From positions 186,001 to 250,000 of the forward strand of contig NIVC01001075.1 in NCBI GenBank assembly GCA_002269645.1: a stretch of DNA of 64,000 nt, read 5' to 3'. Below are positions 28,013 to 64,000 of the stretch, piece after piece. This stretch comes from Macrostomum lignano (lineage: Eukaryota). Each line of letters starts with the position of its first letter. The first letter of the stretch is position 1. Both the position numbers and the translations under genes were made by a program. Under the pieces are notes generated by a model. It was not told the origin of the DNA. It ran no database searches and worked only from the letters and a program-made list of their open reading frames with translations.

Positions 28013-28223
28013 CTGAACAGGAAGGCGTTTCATGAGCTCGGAACTTCAATATCTTCAAAAAGTCTTGATACCTTCATAGTCACTTTCGCTGGCTTGAAGG
28101 GTGACTAAGGGGATACAAGTGGAGAATAGAGGCCGGAAGACACACACAAAAGACTTTACCTACACAGAGACCAGACATACAAGTGGAGAGTAGAGGCCGG
28201 AAGGCACACACAAAAGACTTCAC

Positions 28224-29212
28224 CTGCACAGAGACGAGGCAGCAGCACAGCATGAGCTGCGACCTGGGACTCGTGTAGGACGGTTTCTTCATGAGCGACT
28301 TGACGGCCCGATTGAAGATCCGGCTCAGTCTGTTTGTCTTGGTGAAGATGGCCGAGTAGATAACGCTCAGACTGAGCCCGTTGAACACGCGGAAGAAGCC
28401 GCAGGTCACCGGTGTAGGCGGCGCCAGCATCACAAAAGTGGTGCAGAAGGCCATCATGGCGCCGCCTAGCATGACGTAGCAGAGCTCGCGTCCCGACGCG
28501 CGAATCAACGGCGTCTGATTGTAGCGGACAAAGACTGCGAGAATAAAGACAGTGCAGGCCAAGCCGGCCATGCTGAGCGTCATCGGTAGGATGCCCCACA
28601 CGCTGTCCAGTCGAAGAGTTTCAACCGGCAGAGAATTGCACGCATTGTAGAAACGGTTTGGCACGCTGCCAAGAGGACAGTCAGCGCAGAGGCTATCGTT
28701 GAGAACGATTTGGTACTTGCTGTCGCAGGGCACGCATTCCCAACAGCAGGTGGCCGTCTCTTTGTTCGGTTTCACGGTTCGATTACCTCGCCCGCACGGC
28801 TCCGAGCAGACAGACACGGGTGGCGATGATGAAGCTCCTTCGCCCCAGGCGAGGCGGTCACTGTCCAAGCTGAGCGACCCGCCCCAGCTGCCAATCTTCC
28901 GGTAGCGAAATCCGCCCTTACCTCTCCTGTGCTGGTACTGGAACACTTCGTACAAGGACTCGCGATCGCCCAGCTGATTGAAGCGTACTGTGTCACCTGA
29001 AGTGCCCGTGAAATTGACTCGGCTGATGAAATCTCGCAGCAGAGTGCCGTTCAGTGTCGCGTTCATTGGGGCGCAACCCTTGGGGTACTCGTCCGGGCAC
29101 AGAGCCTCGTGCATGCGGTCGATGGCGTGAGCCATGGCTAGCACAGCATCGACTACCATTGGAACCAAGCCTTCCTGCTCGTAGCGGCTGTGAGTGCCAA
29201 TGACTTCCTTGC
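28224..29212 (-). CDS. GRM: mGluR exon 5 (Venus flytrap C-terminal part, cysteine-rich domain, TM1-TM4)
   Basis: 989 nt, cgcag|GC...CAG|gtgaag; contains YEQEGLVPMVVDAV, VCSEPC...CCWECVPC, ASGRELCY, TKTNRLSRIF. Confidence 0.97.
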
Positions 29213-29286
29213 CTGCGAATGCGTGGTTCACAGAGAGGCCGCTTGGACTTGTTTTAGATGGGTCTACAGCAAATCTACAGTCCATA

Positions 29287-31308: not shown

Positions 31309-31895
31309 CTGTCAAAATGAACGTCGAAGATAAATGAATTTAATACCTGGTACTAGACCTAAGGCATTAAAAAATCTGCTTTATAATAATTTCTTTCAGT
31401 TCGGAAGAACCTGCATAGGGAAATGGAGAGAGTAAGGACTAAAAGTCATCCCAGTTGATGATGACAATATGCATCTGTACTGATCGGATTGGTAAAAGCT
31501 TGATCAATGTTTTCAGCTAAGCTTAGCTTTTTGCTAATGCGATTTCTGTTTACACACTGAGCCATCGAATTTCCACAGGGGGGCAGCTCTCGCGCCTAAA
31601 GCTCCCGTCTGCAGGTTCGCAAAGTAAAACTTTCTAAAAGCTTACTTTTAAATGGAATTCGATTTTATGCATCTTTCCCTTCATCCATGCTCTGCTTAAC
31701 TATAGATCCTGCATGTATGTTCTACAATAGCATTCACGCCTCCTTTCCGTGTACTCTTTTGTAGCTAATTACTGTAATACTGTATACAGGATCAGCCAGT
31801 CCACAATAGACCCTTAATGCCCCCTCTTGCACTGCCAGTTGCTATGTGTACATGGTAGCATTACAAAATGACGCGGCGGGGGAGGGGTTAATCAC

Positions 31896-36894: not shown

Positions 36895-37452
36895 TAAGAG
36901 ATTGATAGAGAGTTTAAGAGATTGATAGAGTGTTTGAGAGATTGATAGAGAGTTTGAGAGATTGATAGAGTGTTTGAGAGATTGATAGAGAGTTTGAGAG
37001 ATTGATAGAGAGTTTGAGAGATTGATAGAGAGTTTGAGAGATTGATAGAGAGTTTGAGAGATTGATAGAGAGTTTGAGAGATTGATAGAGAGTTTGAGAG
37101 ATTGATAGAGAGTTTGAGAGATTGATAGAGAGTTTGAGAGATTGATAGAGAGTTCGAGAGATTGATAGAGAGTTTGAGAGATTGATAGAGAGTTCGAGAG
37201 ATTTAAAGAGAGTTTGAGAGATTGATAGAGAGTTTGAGAGATTGATAGAGAGTTTGAGAGATTGATAGAGAGTTCGAGAGATTGATAGAGAGTTCGAGAG
37301 ATTGATAGAGAGTTTGAGAGATTGATAGAGAGTTCGAGAGATTGATAGAGAGTTTGAGAGATTGATAGAGAGTTCGAGAGATTTAAAGAGAGTGTGAGAT
37401 ATTGATAGAGAGTTTGAGAGATTGATAGAGTTTGAGAGATTGATAGAGCGTT
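36895..37452 (+). repeat. 20-bp satellite (GAGATTGATAGAGAGTTTGA)n, left flank of the Maverick
   Basis: About 28 units, ending in the variant ...GATAGAGCGTT that abuts the element. Confidence 0.97.
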
Positions 37453-37909
37453 ATACCATACAAAATCACCAGCAATCCATGGCCAGCAACCAAACTAATT
37501 TTAATGTTGTTAAGGTAAAATTATAAATTTTTCGCTTCATTTTCGCTCGTCTTCACTTCGCTCAACTCGCTCCGCTCATCCTCGTTTCATTTCGGTAAAA
37601 ATGTATAATTTTACCTTAACAACATCAAAATTACCTTTTGTTTCTGAAATTTCGCTCTCGTCGTTCGCTTGTGGTTTGCTGGTGATTTTGTATGCTTCCA
37701 ATACTTCCAACACTTCCAACACTTCTAACACTTCCAAACAATTCCAACACTTCCAACACTTCAAACACTTCTAATACTTCCAACACAACCAACACCAACT
37801 AACTGATAATAAACCTCACCCGCCCGTGCCGCAGGCACGCGGACGAAGTCCGACCGCCCCGAAGGGGCTTGGGGCACAGAAAAGCATGATTTTTCTGTTA
37901 GTAAAAATA
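37453..37909 (+). repeat. Maverick terminal repeat copy 1 (~457 bp)
   Basis: Aligns by eye with 49291-49794 along its whole length; lacks the first 9 nt (AGTAGTATT). Confidence 0.9.
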
Positions 37910-37986
37910 AACCGAGTTTACAACTTTTCAGTAAGTGATACTTCGAAACTGTTGCTAAAAATGCTGAGATAATAAAACAGCATATA

Positions 37987-38394
37987 TTGAATGGAATAAT
38001 CGATGAGGTTTTTTTAAAATACAACAACGGCGAGGAACTAAAACTTTATCCACTAGAGTTAGACGGTTTATATGATTTAGAACAGGAGGGAGAGCTAATT
38101 TTTCAACTTGGTGATTATTTAAATTCAGACGATTGGGAGGTTCGTTCAACGGATTCTGAGTCAACAAATAGTTCGTTTGAAACTAGTGAATGAAGTGAAT
38201 AGAGAATGAAAGTGAAATTTTTATGTAAAAAAATGGAATTAGGCAGCAGACCCCACTTTTCAATAACTGAATCAACTCAAACAATATTTAATGCACTCGA
38301 TTCAATAAAAAAACTTATAAAGGATGAAATACTCGATGAAGTATATATATACAACCAAATAAAAAGATATATCCACTTGAAATTGGAGAATTAG
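37987..38394 (+). CDS. two small hypothetical viral ORFs (68 aa acidic; 62 aa, probably frameshift-truncated)
   Basis: ORFs 37987-38193 and 38206-38394 inside the element; no recognisable motif. Confidence 0.4.
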
Positions 38395-38678
38395 ATTATA
38401 TTTGGGATAAGGGGGAAGAAAGTCTTCTTCTAGCACAATGTTTAAACTGTTAAAAATTATAACTAAAAATCACCCCGATGAATTACTATTCAGTGACAAA
38501 AACAAATTTATTGCGAAAAATATAAGTAAAAAATGAACTTAAATTATTCCTACATTGGCAAAGTGCCAATTAAAGATTTTCAAGATAATGTTAGTTTGAT
38601 AGCAGTTGAACAAGTTACAATAATATTTTTAGTTCTAGTATTAATAATAATATTGTTTTTATTTGTTATAATTTTTTA

Positions 38679-38930
38679 TTACCTTGTTGCCTTAAGTAAT
38701 TGATTCTTATAAAACGATCCTAATATTTCTTCAAGTAAAACATCTAATATGGTTAAAATATACTTATACCCTCCGTCGTTCGGCATAGCCATTAAATCAG
38801 CATACCAAATTTCATTCTTTTTAAAGTCCATGATTTTTCGATAAAATTTAGATTTTCGGTATTCTCTATGAAGATTTTTGCCTCATCAGAACTTAACCCA
38901 CCACCACTTAATACTCGTAACAAACATTCA
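38679..38930 (-). pseudogene. int: Maverick retroviral-like (rve) integrase, internally deleted
   Basis: Reads LHREYRKSKFYRKIMDFKKNEIWYADLMAMPNDGGYKYILTILDV, then directly LLEEILGSFYKNQLLK*. These match the N-core (WQADL..M...GYKYILTVIDV) and C-terminal (GE.I.GSFY..EL) motifs of Maverick integrases. Confidence 0.8.
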
Positions 38931-38959
38931 ACACAATTATTTCCATGTTGATTGTAATT

Positions 38960-40314
38960 AATTCCTAAACCAAATTTAACTTTAGATTGCAGAATCTTAT
39001 TAACGATGCACCGAGTTAATCTTTGGCCAACCGGGTTACATGGGTTATATACCAGAAACGATGGAACCGCTCTTACAGCTCCCGATATCGCCGATCGTTC
39101 AGGTATTGTTATAGAAAATGATTGGTTTTATAAATGTTTTTCCCAAGCGCAACTAAGAATTGATGGAGCCGAGGTTGAGACATCTAGCAATCCCGAGGAG
39201 ATTAATGGAGTTTTGAAACATTTAAATTATACCTATTTAACAAAACAGGTTGGTGACAATGTTGGATGGATGCCAGATAAGGGTGATGGTGGAGCAATTA
39301 ATTTCTCTCAAGTACCACCGGCAGCCGGAGCCGATACGGCAGCACTCATTAACTATCTGAATACGAATATAGTTCCAGTTGTAACTACTCTAACCAACCC
39401 TAAAAACATGAACACCGGATTCATAGATCGTCAGAATAAATTCCCAGTAGCAGTTTTAACCGATGCAGCCGCATATGAGCAGGACTTTTAAATCTTCCCA
39501 TTATTAGGTTTCTTCTCACCAAATCGTGTTTGGAAAGGATTAAGATTTGGTGTACAATTGAAAATATTTGGCGGGTATCTGGGCAGAATACTTTTTGGAA
39601 ATTCAACCTCAACCGATTTAGCAGCTAGAATAGTTTCAATTCAATTAGTTTTCCCAACGATTGAGGTAACAGCTCCACTTATCTCTTATAAACGATCAGT
39701 TAATGAAGGATCAGGAAATGTTCTATTTGAATCGTCGGCACTTTATGCGAACTATAAATAAAATCAGGATTCATTCCAGAGGCAAATTCTCACATCAAAA
39801 CGTCGCGTGAGATATATTTTTGCTTGGTTTAAAATCACAAACAGAACTAGCAAAAGAGCTAATGGAGATTTATATTGGATTCAATCTGATGCAGTAGCAG
39901 TTCAAGCCGCCACCGAAACTGACACCGCAGCCTTAGCAACTACCGCATTTAATCTCCAGAATATTCGCTTGCAGGTTGATCCTGTAGGATATTATCCTGT
40001 AAAGATGCCCTTAATCTAAACATGGCTAATAATGACGTTAATGATTTGATAAAATATTATCAGGATTATGCCAAAAACGAGGTGTATGCAGTACCACAAT
40101 ATACTCCCACAGAGTTTCTAAACATTCATCATTTTGGTTTCTAAACATTCATCTAACTGCAAAAAAAGAAAATGTAGCCAATATTGGTTTGAATTATATG
40201 TTAGAGATTAATAAAACCGGAAATCAGGCGGTTGACGCACATGTTTTGTTTCTCGAGGAGTATTTGTCAATTGCTGGCGCCGATGGAACAATTATTCAGG
40301 ACACCCCGCTGTAG
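38960..40314 (+). pseudogene. major capsid protein (double jelly-roll, Maverick/PLV type), frameshifted
   Basis: ORF pieces 39006-39491, 39558-39761, 39807-40019 and a tail to TAG 40314. Motifs: DGT...END.F..CFSQAQLRIDGAEVE, G.N.GW.PD, RVRYIFAWF, NLQNIRLQV...YYP. Capsid call from recalled motif pattern and gene context. Confidence 0.75.
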
Positions 40315-40399
40315 GCGGTGCAGGACATAGTCCGTCGCGCCATTGTAAATGTCGCAGTTCTCCGAACGTCGCACCAATGTAAATTTTTTTTCCTAAAAA

Positions 40400-51306: not shown

Positions 51307-54300
51307 ATGGAACAAAGATTAACCCCAAATCAGATTCGACAACTACTTGCTAATGAGCGCGCACAGTTCAATCGATTACAAAGACAGATTGAACAAATCG
51401 AAATGCGCCAAAGAAACTTAGAAAGACAAAGACGAGATGAAGAAATACAAGCATTAGCAACTAATTTAAGAGCCGAATATGAAATGAAAAGATTAATAGA
51501 AAATGCACAATATGAAGCAAGAATAGCAGAGTTAGAAAAAAATCAAAAGAAAACCAGACGTCGAAAACCACGGAATCAATCACCTGAAAAATCACTAGAA
51601 GAGTTTATTCGAGTATATCGGTTTGAGCCAATGGAGAATGTATTAGATTTTATTGAAACACAACTCTCAAACGGATATAGTGTTGAAAATACTAATGCGA
51701 GAGTCCAATATTTCTATCGCAATAGCGGAGACGATCGAGAAGAAATTAATCAATACTTAGCAACGTTTTATAATATAAATCAGTTTCAAGCTTGGTTTAA
51801 ACATTTGGTTGAAAACTATGACATGAATCTAAGCGTGTTTTCGGGAAGACTCAAAATGACACCAAACATAATCACATTGAAACACGAAAGATCAAAGCAA
51901 GGTATGGGCACCAACGTCATGTGTGAAATTGCAGAGTACCAAGACGATTATTGTTATATACCTAGTGATGGAAATTGTTTCTATAAGTGTGTTCAATTTA
52001 TTTATGGTGATAACGCACCATCCAAAGAAGAATATGGAGCTTGGTTGTACGACTCAAGAACCCAAAGAGGTTTAATGACAAATTCAAGAATTGGAAAATT
52101 CAACGAACATTTTAATTTGAACATAGGTTTATATAATCCAAATAATCGCGGCATCGAACCAAAATCCCAAAGGCAAATAAAACACGATTGGTTATTGATA
52201 AATTATTATCACACGACAGATTATCATATTGGCCACTACTGTTTAATATCCAATTAACAAAGAGGAATCGGCCTCGAACGCATAAAAGAAAATTATAAAG
52301 TAACATTCAAAAACTCAACATCGGAAACAGTTAAAGAGATAAAAACGTTTAATACTCCAACAAATCCAAATAATGCTAATGTATTTATATTTGATTTTGA
52401 AACATATTTAAATGATAATCAACAAGCATGCCCCTATGCAGTTGGTCTTTCAAATTATTAAATCTTTTTTCAAAATTCCAACGAAAGCACAGAGACAATA
52501 AAGGCACTAACTAAGGTTTTGATTTCCGATCGAGGGTGTGATTTCAAAACAGATGGAGAGGGTTCGCAACCAAAGGTTGATTGCGTTAGAAAAATGTTTA
52601 AATACCTTGGTTCAATTATGTCAAAAAGATTGTTTTGATAGCACATAATTCATCTAGATTTGATTCATATATACCACTATTTTGCAATATAAAACCAACT
52701 AAATTCTTAAAACACCTAGAGGAATATTATCAATAACTTTAGTAAATGATTATACAACAAAAGAAGTATTATCGTTTATAAACAAAGATAAGAAGAAGAA
52801 TCAAAAGTATTCAAAACAAACAATTACAATGCTTTGTTTGTATCAACACGCATCAATGAGTTTAAAAAAAATTGTTCGTCAGTGACAATTAGAGAAGATT
52901 TGCGCAAGACCGAAATGGTTCATAATATTAGCGAGAGCGATTATTTAGAACGGATAGATGAATGGTATGAATATTTACAATTTGATCTTATTTCTCTATG
53001 TGCATGCATTCATAAGTATAATGAAATTGCATATTCAATTGGAGGAATGACAATGTTTGACACTCTTACATGTTCAAGTTTAACATTAAAATGTTGGTTT
53101 AAAGATTTTGTTAGAGTTGAAGACAAAATGAAGCAATACCTAAAGACAAAAGAAAAAACCAATTACATTAATAAAGTTGAACAAACAATTTCTCCGTTGA
53201 AAATTGAAGATTATTTTGACTTGACTTTTGAACTTGATACTTGAACTTGATATTTTGAAACATCAAAAAAGGAAATATCAAACTTTATTAAGAAAAGAAT
53301 TTTCAATTCACTCACACATAGACCCATATATAAGAAGGTTTTTGCGGGACGCAGTCAAAGGAGGCAGAGTATTTGCACTAACAAATAAATATGAATTAAA
53401 AGCGACTGTTTTCAAACAATTGTAGACATTGTAAAAGATCATTTAAAACACCAACCGCCGACCCATGCGAGGTTATATCAACCTATCTTAAATGTGATCT
53501 TAAATAAAAAAATAAAATAGCAATCAAACAAAAAATCAATTAGGTACGGTATCTGATTGTTTAATGAACTTTGATGGAGTTTCATTGTACCCATCTGCAA
53601 TGTCTGATAAAGATAGCGAATATCCAAGAGCAGAAAGTGCTAGAGTTTTTGATATAAGCGAAGAAAAAGATTCATTGGCACAATTGAACTCACAAACTTT
53701 TAGACCAAAAACAGAGGTTTTGAAGATTATGTATGAGAATCCTAACACTGTTTTTCTCCAACATCTACTATCTAAAGACAAAGAGAAATTTTATAATCCG
53801 GAAACAAAAGCAAATGAAAAAAAAACATTAAATAGATTTAGAAACGGAAAAGTAATTGACACCCTTTGCTCAGTAGACAGACAAGAAATTGTAAGAATGG
53901 GGGAAAGATATTAAAGATATATAGTGGAATCATGTATGAAAAAAATTACGACTTTTCGCTATTTCAGAATTATATTACAAATCTTTTTGAAATGCGTAAA
54001 ATATTTAAAAAAGTAAATAATGAGGCGGGTTCTGAATTATTAGAAACACTACTAAATTCTTTAAATGGTAAAACGGTTCAAAAGGCCATTACCTTCACAA
54101 CCCATCTTCGGAATTTGAATACCTTAAAAAAAGAATACGACGACACAATTAAGTCATATGAGAAAATATGTGATGACCTATTTTTTGTAGAAAAAAAGAA
54201 AGACACAGAAGAATATATAGAAGATGACGATAATCCAGCAATGGGTCTTTGCCCAGCACAATTAGGTATATTTATTTTGGCTCATTCAAGAAGAATTATG

Positions 54301-54898
54301 AATAATTTTATCACATAATTAACGGATCAAAGACTCCGCAAATTTATTATGGCGACACCGATTCTTTGTATATACACAAAAACATTGGGATACTTTGAAT
54401 ACAAATGGTCACGTCGGAAATAATTTAAGTCAAGGAAAAAACTACTATGGAGAAGGTGAAATTATTTTCAGATGTTTCATTGCCCCTAAAATTAAATATT
54501 GTCTTTTGTTGAAAGATGATTTTATAATGGAAGAGAAAAAACATATAAAGGTTGTGCAATGATAAAATTAATTTTGCATCTTTCAAAACTTTATATGATG
54601 GTCAATCAATAAAAGTAAATAATAATGCACCATGGAAACGATCGTTTGAAGGAGGGATAACAATTCCTCAAGGAGATAACGCAAGCATATAAAAAACATA
54701 TACGTCTACAGTTAACACATATAAAGAGAAAAACCTGATAAAAACGGCGTTATGAAACCTTTCTTTAAAAACTATTTTGACGACAAACCAGAACACGAAC
54801 AAACAATTGAATTTTATAATAATTTACTTTTTGACATCGATTATAATTGTTTTGAGTTGGATATTGATGAGCTAAACGCTATTACTTGTAAAAACTAG
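51307..54898 (+). pseudogene. polB: protein-primed family B DNA polymerase (terminal-protein region, vOTU, exonuclease, polymerase) with multiple stops/frameshifts
   Basis: vOTU IPSDGNCF (51958-51981) and GHY (52231); ExoI FDFET (~52390); ExoII AHNSSRFD (52641); ExoIII YLQFD; KGGRVF; motif A FDGVSLYPSAM (~53570); motif B LLNSLNGK (~54050); motif C YYGDTDSL (54345). Confidence 0.95.
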
Positions 54899-55694: not shown

Positions 55695-56511
55695 AGATTT
55701 ATATTTTTCCTTTTTAAGATATAATTTGATAGCTAAAAGAATTGAAAGAAATTAAAATTGTAAATTGTAATTGTTAATTATAAATTGTTAATTGTAAATT
55801 AAAATTGTAAATTAAAAGAAATTTCTTATTAATTCAAAACTCGATATTGAACCAATTGCAATACCTAAAAATAATTGAGAGATACTAAGGATTGGAATCG
55901 ATTGAATTATACCCAAAACAATTACACATAACATTGATAAGCTTCCAAAACCAATATTAAAAAAAATCTATATTCCTAATATGATTTGAAATTCTAATTA
56001 CTTTTTTGTATATAAATCATAATCGCTAGTTATTCTTTTTACATTGCTTCTCATGCGCCCTTTACGTTGGTTAAATAAATCGCGTTCCTTTTTATCCGCT
56101 TCAGACACCGACATTGTCGTCTATTTTTAATAGCACCAAAATGAATTCCCCACGCTCTTTAGGAATTTGTCCAGAACTCAATAGATATTGGATTGGAGTA
56201 ATTCTTTCTTTTTTCTCCCATTTAAATGTAATCTTCCAAAATTCTTGAAGTATAATATGATTTTTTAACTAATTCTAATTTAGTTAAACTAATTTTTCTA
56301 ACTAACTAATTTCTCTAACTAATTTTTTAACTAATTTTTTTTAATTAATTCTTGAAGTCTCTTATTGTCTTAAACATTCACACCACTAAATAAAATTCTA
56401 GTATGAGATTTAAAAGTTTTTATATTTGATTCTTGTTTTGGAACCGGAATAACAATATTGTTCTGTCTAATTGATGAAGTTCTGCTAAAACCATTTTATA
56501 TACCAACATTT

Positions 56512-59259
56512 TTATATAGCTACAGGTGGCTCTTCAAGATATGCGCTAGCAGCAAAATTACATCCAGCAGATGTGCTACCACAAACGGCGGCGCAGCGAA
56601 TAAAATGTGCAGCATCCGCTCCTCCGGTTCTTGCTCCAAATCCCATAAGAGTTCCAGTTTTATCCAACTCTCCCCAATTTCCACTATCATATGTAAAAAA
56701 AAATTTGCCCAATTGGCGTATATGCTTTAGTTGAAACATTGAATGTGCTTAATTGATACCAAACTCTTTGATTTAAAATATTAATTTCAAATAGATGCCT
56801 ATCTCCATTATCAATATTAGCGTAGGTTACTGTTTGATCGGAGTCATTAAGAACATCAGCACGCGAGGATCCATCTGCTTTTTTAGAACTCCAAAGTAAG
56901 TCAAATCTATCATGCCACTCACTCGCAAATACAATTAATCCAGCATCAGTTGTTAATCCAGCCCCACTTTCAGTTGTTGGCCGTTCATGACAATATGCAT
57001 AAAACCAAACTGCGTCCGCTCCTGTTCCTGAGTGTCACGTTTTTGTAGTCGTTGTAGTCCCAAATTAATGGTGAAGTCAAACTCTTGCGGAGTGGGTTGT
57101 GTAGCGGAAGCACTTGGCGTATGATGGCAGAGGACTGCCGTAAACCGTTTATTGTCGTTATCAATATGGTTAATGTCAATACAAGAGTTATAGCGTTCTG
57201 GGGCACTGGCGGCTGCAACAACGGGTCGATGTAATTGAAGTTATGAAGTCAAGCAGATGATGGAGGATGATGGTGAAGCAAAGTAGCAAGTGATGGTGCT
57301 GAGTACGGTGGTGGCAGTGAGTAGCAAGTAGGCAAGTAGTGGCGTGATTGGGCGCTAGCCCGTGGCAGTACAAGGTGGAGCACGAATGCGTAAACAAGTC
57401 TGGCCCAGACAGGGTGGGGCCGTGGCGAGAGATAAGGAGAGACAAGCGAGAGGGAAAGAAGGAAAGGAAGGAAGGAGGAGGAGGAGCAAAACCCCCCAAC
57501 CCGCCGCCAGGCGGGGTTAATAAAGGAGCGCAGGAAGGTTAGCATAATAAATGCGGAGAGTTTTCATTGGCTGGCGGGGGAAAAGCGAGAACTGAAATTA
57601 TTGATCGCGCGAGACCCTACAGACGTACGCAAAGATTACCATGTACGCAATGATTAGCAATTGATACAGATTCGTTGGGCGCTACTACAAGTAAATGTGA
57701 GAATACACGATTGGAGAATATTAAATGAGAAATTGCAGTGAAATTGTAGTCCAACGGCCCTTTTGCGGGACCACCTTAAACTGACAACGTCACACTGAGG
57801 AATTAGCAACTTTGAAAAAGAATGATTCAGCAATATTTTTAAAATGTGTGAAATTAAATTGTAATGCCCCACTTACACCACCGGTTTTACGAGTAATTCT
57901 AGCTCCATTTTGATAATCAATATAAGAAGCATCTCCAATAAAAGACCCCGTTGGAAAAATATCACCAGCAGTTGTTGGATTTTGGTAACCAGTCCAATTA
58001 CAAATTACGGCTTCATATAACGCGGCATCAATCGCGGGAATACCATCCAATTAAATTTTATCATTAAAAGACATTATTCAATCTGCTGTTTGTGTTACGC
58101 GCGTATCTACATAATCTTTATTAACAACCGATCTGTTGTGATTTATAACTGAGATATTTGTAAGTGTATTACCACCCATGTCAATAGATTGATTAACTAC
58201 TCCTAAATTCAAATCAATAACTGTAAAAGTCTGTCGATAAATTTGGAATGTAAAAAGACCTGGATTTGTAGCACCTGAGGTTGAAGTATGACAAAATAAT
58301 CTGAAATATAAATATTCTTTATCAAAATTTTGAGTCACATTAAATGTTTGAGTTGAATTATTTAATGCAGTATTTTCCATTGGATTTAAAATATCCCAAC
58401 TTGTATTGTCATTACTCACTTCAAATCTCCACGACGCGGGGTTTTCGGTTGAGGGTGATGGCCTAACACACAAGTCAATCTTATAACACATTATCGCGGA
58501 TGGACATTGAACTTTAATCCAATAATCAGTTTGTGTTGCAGCAGTTGCCCAATCCGTTGCATCATCGCCATCAAACGCTTTCCAACTTGCAAAGGTGCTT
58601 GCAAGCATTAAATGCCGTGCTTGCTGTAATCGCAAAACCATTTCCACTCCAATCTGACATTGTTGGTATATGTCCAGTTTCAACAGTTTGGAATATATTT
58701 TGTTTAGGGTTTCCACCATTTAATAAATTATCAACTTCTGTTTTAGTATAGGAATCAGCAATGTTTATTTTTAAATTTAATGAATTATCAACTTCTGTTT
58801 TTGTATAGGAATCAGCAATATTTCTTTTTAAATTTAATGAATTATCAACTTCTGTTTTAGTATAGGAATCAGCAATATTTCTTTTTAAATTTAAGGAATT
58901 ATCTATTTGCGTTCGAGAATAGGAATCGGTTATATCTCTTTTTAAATTCAAGGAATTATCTATTTCAGTTCGAGAATAAGAATCAGTTATATCTCTTTTT
59001 AAATTAACAGCAGAATCAACTTCAGCTTGACTGTAAGAATCTAATATATTGCATTTTAAATTTAATGAATCATCAATTTGAGTTTGGTTAATTTGGGTTT
59101 TAGTATATGAATCTGCTATATTCCGTTTTAAATTTAATTTAGTATCTATTTCACTTTTTTATACCTTTCATGGAAAGCAAACGAAACATTAATGCCAGTT
59201 GATTCCCCACCACCAGTTCTTGCAGTTCCATTCCATGAGGGTGTTCCAGTAACTAACAT
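56512..59259 (-). pseudogene. putative fibre/receptor-binding protein: 19-aa YTKTEVDNSLNLKRNIADS repeats, F5/8-type-C (discoidin)-like domain, MGG.TLTN...KDYVD motif, L-type-lectin-like domain
   Basis: 57-bp repeats at 58720-59150; WKAFDG...WAT...WIKV...SWRFEVSND..SW (ORF 58078-58719); ARITRKTG...FFFKV..SSGTGADAVWF...IDNGDRH after removing the solo LTR. May be two adjacent genes. Confidence 0.7.
57033..57794. mobile_element. solo LTR, 762 bp, 5-bp TSD CTGAG
   Basis: CTGAG|TGTCACG...CGTCACA|CTGAG. Removing it restores ANSS-GTGADAVWF in the lectin-like frame. Confidence 0.88.
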
Positions 59260-61093: not shown

Positions 61094-61639
61094 TCAGTCC
61101 TCTTCCTCTTCGTTATCTTCTTTTATTAGTTTTGTTATAATTCTATTTCTACTTTCTAATCTTGGGTTAATAAACATATGTTTGTACCGACTTTCTTCCC
61201 AAATGTTTCTACACATATTTTTGAATGATTTTGAATCCAATCCGGGATTAAATCTCCTTTGAATATTTTGTAAATCATAATCATCTAAATCAAACATTAC
61301 ACAACAACTTGCATTCTTTTTTTATAATTGTATCTAATTCTCTAAATGATTGAGTAAGGAAAAATGCGCCAATTCCATCTCCTCTACCGCTAACAAAATT
61401 TCTTTTTGCAATTCTTGATTACCATCATTATCACAATCATCAAATACAATAAGTGTTTTATCATCTTTTGGAATTTGATCATATATTTGTTTTTTGATAT
61501 TTGAATTGTTGGGGCGTTGTTGGCAATGTTTTCTGGATGTTGGGCGGTTGTTCTAACCAAATCCTTTATGTCATTAAGTGTGAATCGCGGTTCATCATCA
61601 TCCTCATATTGCTCATATGATCTTCTAAACGAGATATAT
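61094..61639 (-). pseudogene. packaging ATPase, C-terminal half
   Basis: ISFRRSYEQ...KTLIVFDD (Walker B), FVSGRGDGIGAFFLTQSF...IKKNA (A32 motif), HMFINP. Confidence 0.9.
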
Positions 61640-64000
61640 TGTTGTAACCCGTCTCTAGCTCCTTGACGAAATTTACATGCGAATCGACAGGCTGTGGCGG
61701 CTGGTCAGTCAAGTCTATCGGTAGGCGCATCTCCGTGCCATAGACCATGTAGTGGGGAGTATAACCCGTTGCTCGATGCACGCTTGATCGGTACGCCATT
61801 AACGCAGAGCTGACAAATTCTTCCCAGTCGTTTCGTCCTGAGTCCTCTAGGCAGCACTTGAGGATGGATTTTAAACTTTTATTGAAGTTTTCTACTTGTC
61901 CATTTCCGCTCGGATGATAAGCTGTGGTTCTGGACTTGCGGATCTCGAGTATCCTGCACATTTCGCGCATCACTTGCGATTCGAAGTTCCTTCCTTGGTC
62001 ACTGTGCAAAGTACTCGGACATCCATGCTGGCTAATCCATCGATTGAAAAGCGCCCTTGCCACCGTCCTTGCCTTCTGGTTGCGAAGCGGGTACGCGTCA
62101 GGCCACTTCGTAAACGAATCTTGGACTGTCAGGAGATAAATGTTTCCAGCCTTACTCCGCGGTAGCGGCCCGACAATGTCCATCATGACGCAATCGAATG
62201 GTGCTGCGAATGTCAACGGTTGCAGGGGTGCTCGGTTTCGCTTGCCCGGCTTTGACTTGCAGCAGGTGGCACAACCGCGAATATATTCTTCAATGGCACG
62301 AGACAATCCTGGACGCCAGTAGCGCTGAAGCACTTTAAATTTTGTCTTCGCAAAGCCCATGTGGCCACCTCCCACTCCCTCGTGTAGGGTTTTCAAGATA
62401 CGATCCAATGCCTTTCGTGGCAGCACCATTTGATACTCATCGCGCCTGTCTTTGTTTCTCACAAGGAGCACGTTCTCTTGCAGCACCAGGTCGTCTTTTC
62501 GAGTCCAGACGGCTCTAGCCAGTGGACTCCAAGCTGTCTCGCTTTTATCTGGAACTGGGTTTGAGCCAAGCGCTTCCTTTACTGTTCTCAAATCGTCGTT
62601 TTGATCCTGCTCGCTTGCCAGATTGCCGGCTGAGAATCGTTCAAATTCGACTGCATTTAGTCCTTCTGGATGCTGCGCACATGCCGGGCATGTCTCCGCT
62701 CCGAAATGTCTCCGTACTGGCTTCCTCGACATTGCGTCCGCGTTGCCATGCGATCGACCTGGTCTGTGAACGATGCGGTACTGAAATGGAGCCAACTTCT
62801 CCAACCAGCGAGCAACCTGTCCCTCGGCGTCACTGAAGTTTTTTAACCATTGCAGGCTGCTGTGGTCCGTTCGCAGACAGAACGCTTTTCCCAGCAGATA
62901 GTATCTGAATTTCATGATGAAAGTCACAACCGCTAGTAGTTCTAAACGAGTCGTACAATAGTTGCGTTCGGCTTGATTTAGTGTCTTGGACCCATAGGCG
63001 ATCACTCGTTCTGCTCCATCTGGCTGGACTTGAGAAAGTACCGCTCCTATGCCCATCTTCGAACTGCCATCAGTATCGAGGATAAACTCTCCGGCATCCG
63101 GGGAGAAATCCGGATGAGCCATAACCTCTGAACTTGTCATTCGTTCCTTCAATGTTTCGAACGCCAGCTGCTGTTCCGTTTTCCATTCAAACTTTGCGTC
63201 TTTTGTTGTCAACCGAGTTAGAGGCGCTGCTATTGCGGCGAAATCTTTAATAAACTTTCTGTAATAGCCACACAGGCCCAAGAATGAATGCAGCTCCTTT
63301 GAGGATCGCGGTGTTGGCCAGTTCTTCACTTCTTGAACTTTCTCCTCATCGGTACTGATGCCAGCAGCCGACAGCGTGTGACCGAGAAATTTCACTTGCT
63401 TTTGCAAAAAGTGACACTTCTGGGGCTTCAGGCACAAATTTGCTTGCCGCAACTTGCTGAATATTTCCTCCAGTCTTCTCAGGTGTTCATCCACGTCGGT
63501 TGACCAAACCAGTAGATCGTCGATGTAGACGAGACAGGTTTTCCACATCTGCTTGTCCAAAACGGCTGCCATCAACCTGGTGAATGTTGCTGGGCTGTTC
63601 ACTAAGCCGAACGGCATAACCTTCCATCGAAATTGTCCGCGATGCGGCACTGCAAACGCCGTCTTGTCCTGATCCTGAGGTCTCACCCCTACTTGCCAAA
63701 ACCCGCTGTGAAGGTCCATTGTCGAGAAGATCTTGGCGCCGTGTACTGCCTCCAGCGCATCATCGACCCTCGGCATCGGCACTGCATCCTTGACGGTGAC
63801 CTCATTCAACTTCCGATAATCGACGCACATCCTCATTTCCCCTGATTTCTTCTTTACGCACACCAAAGGAAAGCACCATGGTGACTGTGCTTCTTCGATC
63901 TGCCCCTTTTCCAGCAACTCGTTGACTTGACGATCTACTTCTGGCTGTAAGTGGGGAGGCAGACGACGCGGTGGGATCTTGATTGGGCGCGCATTCTCGG
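61640..64000 (-). mobile_element. pol: Ty3/Gypsy LTR retrotransposon pol (RT-RNaseH-IN), open frame, 3' end truncated, continues off the window
   Basis: SPWCFPLVCVKKK, RMCVDYRKLN, YIDD, DTDGS...GAVLSQ, HHCC zinc finger, MDIVGP, SDQGRNFES, GNGQVENFN; RT-RH-IN order. Confidence 0.97.

Follow-up and report, generated by a model that had tools for sequence, protein, structure and literature searches.

Each of the two terminal inverted repeats (TIRs) of a Maverick-type element in Macrostomum lignano can be folded into a long hairpin of its own, in which one A:T pair of the first copy is replaced by a G:C pair in the second. This raises the question whether the structure has been maintained for a function, or whether matching arms and a matched base change can arise without one. 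The locus lies in a stretch of 64,000 nucleotides (contig NIVC01001075.1, positions 186,001 to 250,000; hereafter the window, in whose own coordinates all positions are given), of which the following features define the element and its flanks:

36897..37452, plus strand: 20-bp host satellite (TRF, 27.9 copies), flanking copy 1 and serving as insertion target
37447..37452, minus strand: target site duplication (TSD) of 6 bp, reverse complement of 49276-49281
37453..37912, plus strand: TIR copy 1, the capsid-side end, read inward
38682..38882, minus strand: broken rve integrase fragment of 67 aa (Pfam rve, E 0.002)
39045..40311, plus strand: double-jelly-roll (DJR) major capsid gene, with stops and frameshifts
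40403..40603, plus strand: packaging ATPase, N-terminal part, closing segment A (corresponds to residues 1 to about 67 in homologues)
49107..49281, minus strand: 20-bp satellite as at copy 1 but oppositely oriented, with the TSD (49276-49281) as its last 6 bp
49282..49797, plus strand: TIR copy 2, the polymerase-side end, beginning with AGTAGT
51307..54874, plus strand: protein-primed DNA polymerase B (pPolB) with an OTU-like stretch, broken by frameshifts and stops
61121..61501, minus strand: packaging ATPase, C-terminal part, closing segment B (corresponds to residues about 112-246 in homologues)
61566..63836, minus strand: Gypsy-type RT-RNaseH-integrase ORF, abutting the breakpoint

The original prediction regarded the two repeats as the termini of a Maverick-type element, with which the TSD, the AGTAGT end, pPolB, the DJR capsid and the ATPase all agree. 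A 5'-(AGT)2 end and a 6-bp TSD are Maverick hallmarks (PMC8097293), and besides these and the TIRs the element shares with Mavericks/Polintons of the adintovirus type a pPolB, a DJR capsid, an A32-type ATPase and an arrangement in two convergent gene blocks, with an rve integrase as a candidate further trait (PMC8097293, PMC8502044). By its pPolB, capsid, ATPase, TIR and TSD it is thus of the Maverick/adintovirus type. The TIRs (460-516 bp, 96% identity in aligned columns) lie 11.8 kb apart in direct rather than inverted orientation, and copy 1 lacks the terminal 9 nt, including the AGTAGT motif, that are present in copy 2. Both are flanked by the same satellite in opposite orientations, in phase across the 6 bases of the TSD, and all three full-length homologues of the A32-type ATPase (two with PF04665) map to the window in two parts on opposite strands. 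Because the TSD and the satellite phase join up and the ATPase homologues map in two parts, the copies are the two TIRs of one decayed insertion. Segment A (37453-40603) carries the rve fragment, the DJR capsid gene and the first ATPase part, and segment B (49282 to about 61640) carries pPolB and, on the other strand, the last ATPase part (with about 45 codons unaccounted for between the two). A single inversion with a breakpoint inside the ATPase would explain this layout, as might a mis-join. At the second breakpoint, around 61500-61640, the Gypsy pol ORF runs in and no LTR was seen. The end of segment A is followed by an insert (40620-43800), possibly a non-autonomous transposon, whose ends are GC-rich and each lie close to palindromic repeats of the TCTTAAGA/AAGACGTCTT type (40819-40976, 43363-43520). 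An inversion-split Maverick of this kind would escape TIR-finders that seek inverted ends.

The gene assignments differ in strength. One piece of the polymerase matches DNA_pol_B_2 above the cut-off (E 8.5e-8), homologues span 51307-54874, and the nearest named polymerases are from M. lignano itself (~80% identity; 10 of 10 cluster members). The window's own capsid protein gave no direct Pfam match; among its 12 homologues, six were scanned, three of which pass the Pfam DJR cut-off and one more falls below it. The rve fragment is a weak match (18.7 bits versus a cut-off of 32.6), and protease and minor capsid candidates (60144-59848 and 61087-60293) were picked by eye, without Pfam support. 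An accessory gene at 58078-59158 (minus strand) encodes a stalk of 19-aa repeats followed by a discoidin domain (F5/8 type C), and its product is probably a fibre or spike; a weak Adeno_PX (mu core protein) match at 50451-51083 (plus strand, E 0.006) is below cut-off. Elsewhere in the window, 28080-29285 (minus strand) is an exon of a host class C GPCR (ANF receptor, NCD3G, 7tm_3).

Within the TIRs, the hairpins are built from the following parts, all on the plus strand:

37457..37479, plus strand: outer stem, left arm, copy 1 (22 of 23 positions pair with 37672-37694)
37496..37532, plus strand: inner stem, left arm, copy 1 (35 of 37 positions pair with 37597-37633; covarying site 37518)
37533..37596, plus strand: loop of copy 1, ~64 nt, pyrimidine-rich, with repeated TCGCT/CCGCT motifs
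37597..37633, plus strand: inner stem, right arm, copy 1 (covarying site 37611)
37672..37694, plus strand: outer stem, right arm, copy 1
37695..37795, plus strand: 9-bp tandem repeat, 11 copies in copy 1 and 6.4 in copy 2
49295..49317, plus strand: outer stem, left arm, copy 2 (22 of 23 positions pair with 49592-49614)
49334..49369, plus strand: inner stem, left arm, copy 2 (covarying site 49356)
about 49448..49524, plus strand: TGTAAA-type insert of 77 nt that splits the right arm of copy 2, with internal 8-bp inverted repeats
49528..49553, plus strand: inner stem, right arm, copy 2 (covarying site 49531)

The arms that had been reported were recovered as such, with 37457-37475 pairing with 37676-37694 at 19 of 19 positions and 37497-37525 with 37604-37632 at 28 of 29 in copy 1, and 49335-49359 pairing with 49528-49552 at 25 of 25 in copy 2. 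When the registers are extended the stems of copy 1 become longer than that, with 23 outer and 37 inner pairs, and in copy 2 the inner left arm makes 26 perfect pairs with 49528-49553 followed by 8 with 49441-49448 across the insert. Folding as single-stranded DNA, proposed earlier as a check, gave z = -9.35 for copy 1 and z = -8.69 for copy 2, and of 100 shuffles of each copy none was as stable as the natural fold. Perfect stems of at least 15 bp with a spacer below 340 nt occur only four times in the 64-kb window, three of them being TIR arms; the fourth (1211-1545, 18 bp, arms ~300 nt apart) is possibly a MITE. Rfam returned only four matches to miRNA models, at 18-29 bits versus cut-offs of 94-211, and a 122-aa ORF across the TIR of copy 2 (49317-49685) was taken as spurious, as it has no Pfam match and is closed in copy 1. 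All seven TCGCT/CCGCT motifs of the copy 1 TIR are on one strand. The expansion of TGTAAA repeats noticed earlier is real and amounts to 77 nt in copy 2, but it interrupts the inner end of the right arm and not the loop proper; similar AT-rich repeats at 55749-55826, near the convergence of the two gene blocks, are 78% like this insert and may have served as its template.

Each of the 60 stem pairs is Watson-Crick in one copy or in both, the spacers between the two stems being unrelated, and nowhere in the stems do the two copies share a mispair. The arms therefore matched when the two TIRs were last identical, at which time the stems appear to have been perfect or nearly so, which could be due to recent creation, repeated homogenisation or selection.

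The change from A:T to G:C is real, being 37518(A):37611(T) in copy 1 and 49356(G):49531(C) in copy 2, but it has to be seen against the other differences between the TIRs. Among 423 aligned columns there are 17 differences, 13 of them transitions, with 8 changes in the 120 stem positions versus 9 in the 303 others (Fisher p 0.10, in the direction opposite to protection). The stems have thus been unprotected since insertion, and both TIRs have decayed neutrally. Six of the eight stem changes break a pair, always on one side only and three in each copy, which had been overlooked before. When 8 stem changes were simulated 200,000 times per setting, chance produced one or more compensatory pairs within the same copy in 3.9-6.1% of cases. 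Since both copies are TIRs of one insertion they are not independent examples, and the G:C versus the A:T haplotype amounts to one pair in two non-independent copies (p 0.04-0.06). The conclusion drawn in the original prediction, i.e. that the covariation shows the structure to have been maintained, is therefore unsupported: there is one source sequence, the stems are not depleted of changes, six of eight changes break pairs and chance gives such a pair in 4-6% of cases. The lone compensatory pair is suggestive, being a single event spotted after the fact, and the matched change between the ends is weak evidence for a function of the long hairpin.

Other copies of the family were sought in public sequencing runs, of which 16 were listed and 10 had the stretch; four of these (X1, X5, X6 and X10) were aligned on copy 2 at 80% likeness, as contigs only, and what follows holds among the matches listed for these four. 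Other insertions start exactly at 49282 in all four runs, and their flanks (loose ends) are non-satellite among the matches listed. The loop is the most deeply covered part of the TIR, at 31,440 in X1 versus 420-749 for the right arm, values that were not taken as copy numbers. A record in run X5 (record 17, 49388-49576, 0 differences) matches the right-arm letter and the insert of copy 2 exactly, and the loop form of copy 1 was found in X1. The inner left arm (49337-49361) has no cover in any of the four runs, which was likewise not read as a copy number, so that its letters come from this assembly alone. As to whether other family copies have the arms at all, on which the original prediction was to stand or fall, the picture is mixed: a third form, found in three of the four runs, keeps the right arm without the insert and, where the pair covaries, resembles copy 1 more than copy 2, while forms in X1 and X5 lack the right arm (the loop joins the 9-bp repeats directly) and one form in X6 skips the inner left arm. 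The existence of right-arm-less forms means that the long stem is not universal; they could be dead deletion derivatives. In X10, a more distant contig has an outer right arm that can still be recognised despite two changes. Contig X6/26, with the insert and 8 differences (six listed, all copy-1-like), was rejected as being simply the right arm of copy 1, since copy 1 has 10 differing sites in that register.

Searches further afield remained empty: a 17-mer of the outer arm hit 47 viral loci, none of which extends beyond chance, and the inner-arm pattern hit one metagenome locus with a match of only 19 nt. No related loci were found by capsid protein (viral contigs), capsid alignment or polymerase, a polymerase alignment likewise found none among the genome contigs of viruses and prokaryotes, and a word-index search with capsid read-through gave 0 of 5662 candidates.

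The explanation that seems to fit the A:T/G:C pair best, and to which we would give slightly better than an even chance, is template-switch correction on a neutrally decaying relic. The hairpin, copied as it is into both ends of one insertion, is a built-in part of the TIR of this Maverick subfamily, and it was presumably perfect or nearly so at the element's last replication. According to the Polinton model the ends anneal and pPolB copies the element (figure legend in bioRxiv 10.64898/2026.07.28.741278). Protein-primed strand displacement would, in terms of that model, peel off the 5'-AGTAGT strand as single-stranded DNA, TIR first, upon which the long hairpin and three small GNA hairpins (see below) might fold before the stronger end-to-end panhandle. 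The predicted TIR-TIR duplex has about -474 kcal/mol versus -47 and -58 for the internal hairpins, so that the latter would matter only while one TIR is alone and single-stranded. At such an end, fold-back or template switching by the polymerase can produce the arms and maintain their match, with no need for selection to act on individual pairs. Following integration and neutral decay of both TIRs, a template switch would then most likely have transferred one substitution to the other arm (a quasi-palindrome correction); the TIR so affected was probably that of copy 2, at a site near its slippage insert.

Template switching is described as yielding both arms and compensatory changes in one event (10.1101/2021.04.15.439925), and the homogenisation of arms by an intra-strand event, which the original prediction had offered as its alternative, is indeed a good explanation. 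The covarying site in copy 2 lies 6 nt from the 77-nt insert, and the presence of an insert with its own inverted repeats at this distance suggests polymerase slippage and fold-back at the copy 2 stem. That the third form lacks the insert and comes nearer to copy 1 at the covarying site (joint 49448-49534, three of the four runs) points to copy 2 as the one that changed. An unpaired site in the left arm of copy 2, 4 nt from the covarying one, implies that a conversion tract, if any, was short or predates that change. Clustering of differences (7 of 17 in 94 nt, Fisher 0.07, scan-corrected 0.64) was rejected as proof of such a tract. It is also possible, as proposed earlier, that the termini were not identical at insertion.

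The next candidate, possible though in our judgement rather unlikely, is that the long hairpin is a selected single-strand signal (for an origin, end-protection or packaging), with A:T and G:C representing two viral haplotypes. The ends would then differ through a recombinant incoming genome or later conversion of one TIR by another copy. This agrees with the Watson-Crick state of the 60 stem pairs in at least one copy despite unrelated spacers, with the chance of only 4-6% for the compensatory pair, and with the 5-nt indel by which the loops of the two copies differ, both states of which occur at high depth in all four runs; exchange between family variants fits such a family-wide polymorphism as well as a private event does. 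The retention of the right arm in a form with 12 differences in 121 nt, of the outer right arm with two changes in the distant contig, and the recurrence of palindromes within the TIRs of protist virophages and PLVs (bioRxiv 10.64898/2026.07.28.741278) also speak for selection. However, forms without the right arm occur, the insert was found at single-record depth only, the differences are not clustered like a conversion tract (scan p 0.64) and the panhandle beats the hairpin about tenfold in predicted energy.

Chance alone, i.e. two independent transitions that fell on partner positions of one TIR during neutral decay, is improbable. Most differences are transitions (13 of 17), the pattern was picked post hoc from a scan of 64 kb and its simulated probability is 0.039-0.061, but then about 95% of simulations are without such a pair. 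It is very improbable that the arm match is partly an artefact of assembly or polishing, with reads of one arm correcting the other: although the left inner arm is without cover in the four runs and the rearranged element could be a mis-join, X5 matches the right arm and insert of copy 2 exactly, X1 has the loop form of copy 1, each copy retains several mispairs that polishing would have removed, and the window is free of N. Two separate insertions into the satellite, with each copy being one end of each, are highly improbable in spite of the direct orientation, the distance of 11.8 kb and the multicopy family, given the exact reverse-complement 6-mer, the in-phase satellite, the complementary gene sets and the split ATPase.

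Template-switch correction concerns the long stem, and it is at the inner ends of the TIRs that a second kind of structure was found, which is absent from the original prediction:

37825..37868, plus strand: three tandem C(GNA)G triloop mini-hairpins, copy 1 (5-6 bp stems)
49710..49753, plus strand: three tandem C(GNA)G mini-hairpins, copy 2, identical to copy 1

All six C(GNA)G mini-hairpins in the 64 kb are in the TIRs (three of them independent), versus 0.83 +/- 0.9 in 30 block shuffles, and all are on the strand that starts with 5'-AGTAGT. A fourth, AT-rich stem follows the trio, and the first open frame on the inner side begins 50-70 nt downstream of the cluster. The lack of changes between the copies (0 in 41 bases, p 0.19) is not significant. 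The formation of the mini-hairpins, like that of the long hairpins, is a prediction from folding. GNA loops are distinct in that no others give a DNA mini-hairpin of extra stability, a structure present at the phage G4 origin, RSF1010 ssiA and phage N4 promoters (PMC13037366); identity with the RNA GNRA tetraloop was ruled out from the sequence. The strand bias is better evidence for a signal at the single-strand level than the lone covarying pair, and judged by sequence the likeliest selected signal would be this strand-specific cluster, not the long stem. A pattern search gave two viral loci with nothing shared beyond the motif. Three C(GNA)G mini-hairpins also cluster in a non-coding stretch (near 1500) of an unrelated viral contig of 72 kb; one of them equals the middle one of the Maverick, which is likely to be convergence.

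Among known systems, the element departs from the Mavericks in the literature searched by the two-stem hairpin and the GNA cluster inside its TIR; in addition, an inversion has split this copy, which is also decayed. For the TIRs of animal Mavericks, no account of long internal stems or GNA clusters was found in that literature (Repbase, supplements and most subscription papers lying outside it), and TIR alignments in such sources may bear on the novelty. Parvovirus termini form a long imperfect hairpin near the genome end, a trait shared by the present element, but here the terminal bases are outside the stem (the first 13 nt are unpaired in copy 2) and priming is by pPolB. With the terminal bases outside, the end as it stands cannot prime itself, and among the 29 + 6 pieces scanned no match to a HUH Rep was found, so that this is not a self-priming end of the parvovirus type. 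Quasi-palindrome mutation is usually described for short spacers, unlike the partner sites here, which are 93-175 nt apart. The inverted arms and one-step compensatory changes that template switching yields (10.1101/2021.04.15.439925) are shared by the present element. The ITRs of bidnaviruses, which are thought to be Polinton-derived, form no hairpins of the parvovirus type in the account of PMC4061559.

The Halocafeteria virophages and PLVs, reported on in 2026, also have self-complementary sequence inside the TIR near the terminus, for which the authors weigh a role in replication versus accidental annealing (bioRxiv 10.64898/2026.07.28.741278). As described there, however, these palindromes adjoin the TSD, were sought with gaps of at most 10 nt and belong to elements whose replication genes are of a non-pPolB kind, whereas in the present element the stem starts 13 nt inside, the loop is about 64 nt and pPolB is encoded, i.e. 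a short gap, TSD adjacency and non-pPolB replication are all absent. With G4, RSF1010 ssiA and N4 the element shares C(GNA)G triloops on 5-6 bp stems that are strand-specific and lie in non-coding control DNA, but those hairpins serve bacterial primases or a virion RNA polymerase (PMC13037366), and no enzyme of that kind was found in this element.

Taken together, the structure is real and a variant on a known Maverick element, with a weak covariation and a putative function. Where the two ends of an insertion differ by a compensatory change, template switching or chance can be the cause, and the change is no proof of function. Maverick/Polinton replication is still a model, in which a single-stranded intermediate has been proposed (bioRxiv 10.64898/2026.07.28.741278), and strand-specific mini-hairpins together with a near-perfect TIR stem are the footprint expected of such an intermediate, which is cheap to survey in assemblies. 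It is conceivable, though doubtful, that the TIRs of animal Mavericks hold a control region that is structured as a single strand, consisting of a long two-stem hairpin with a conserved, motif-rich loop followed by a GNA cluster. Equally tentatively, it might fold only on the displaced 5'-AGTAGT strand and be used in replication, excision or packaging, and the sequence of the arms may perhaps, with no greater confidence, be free to co-vary between subfamilies. If true, such a control region would provide direct sequence evidence for the long-proposed single-stranded intermediate of Polintons, as well as cis-signals that can be tested.
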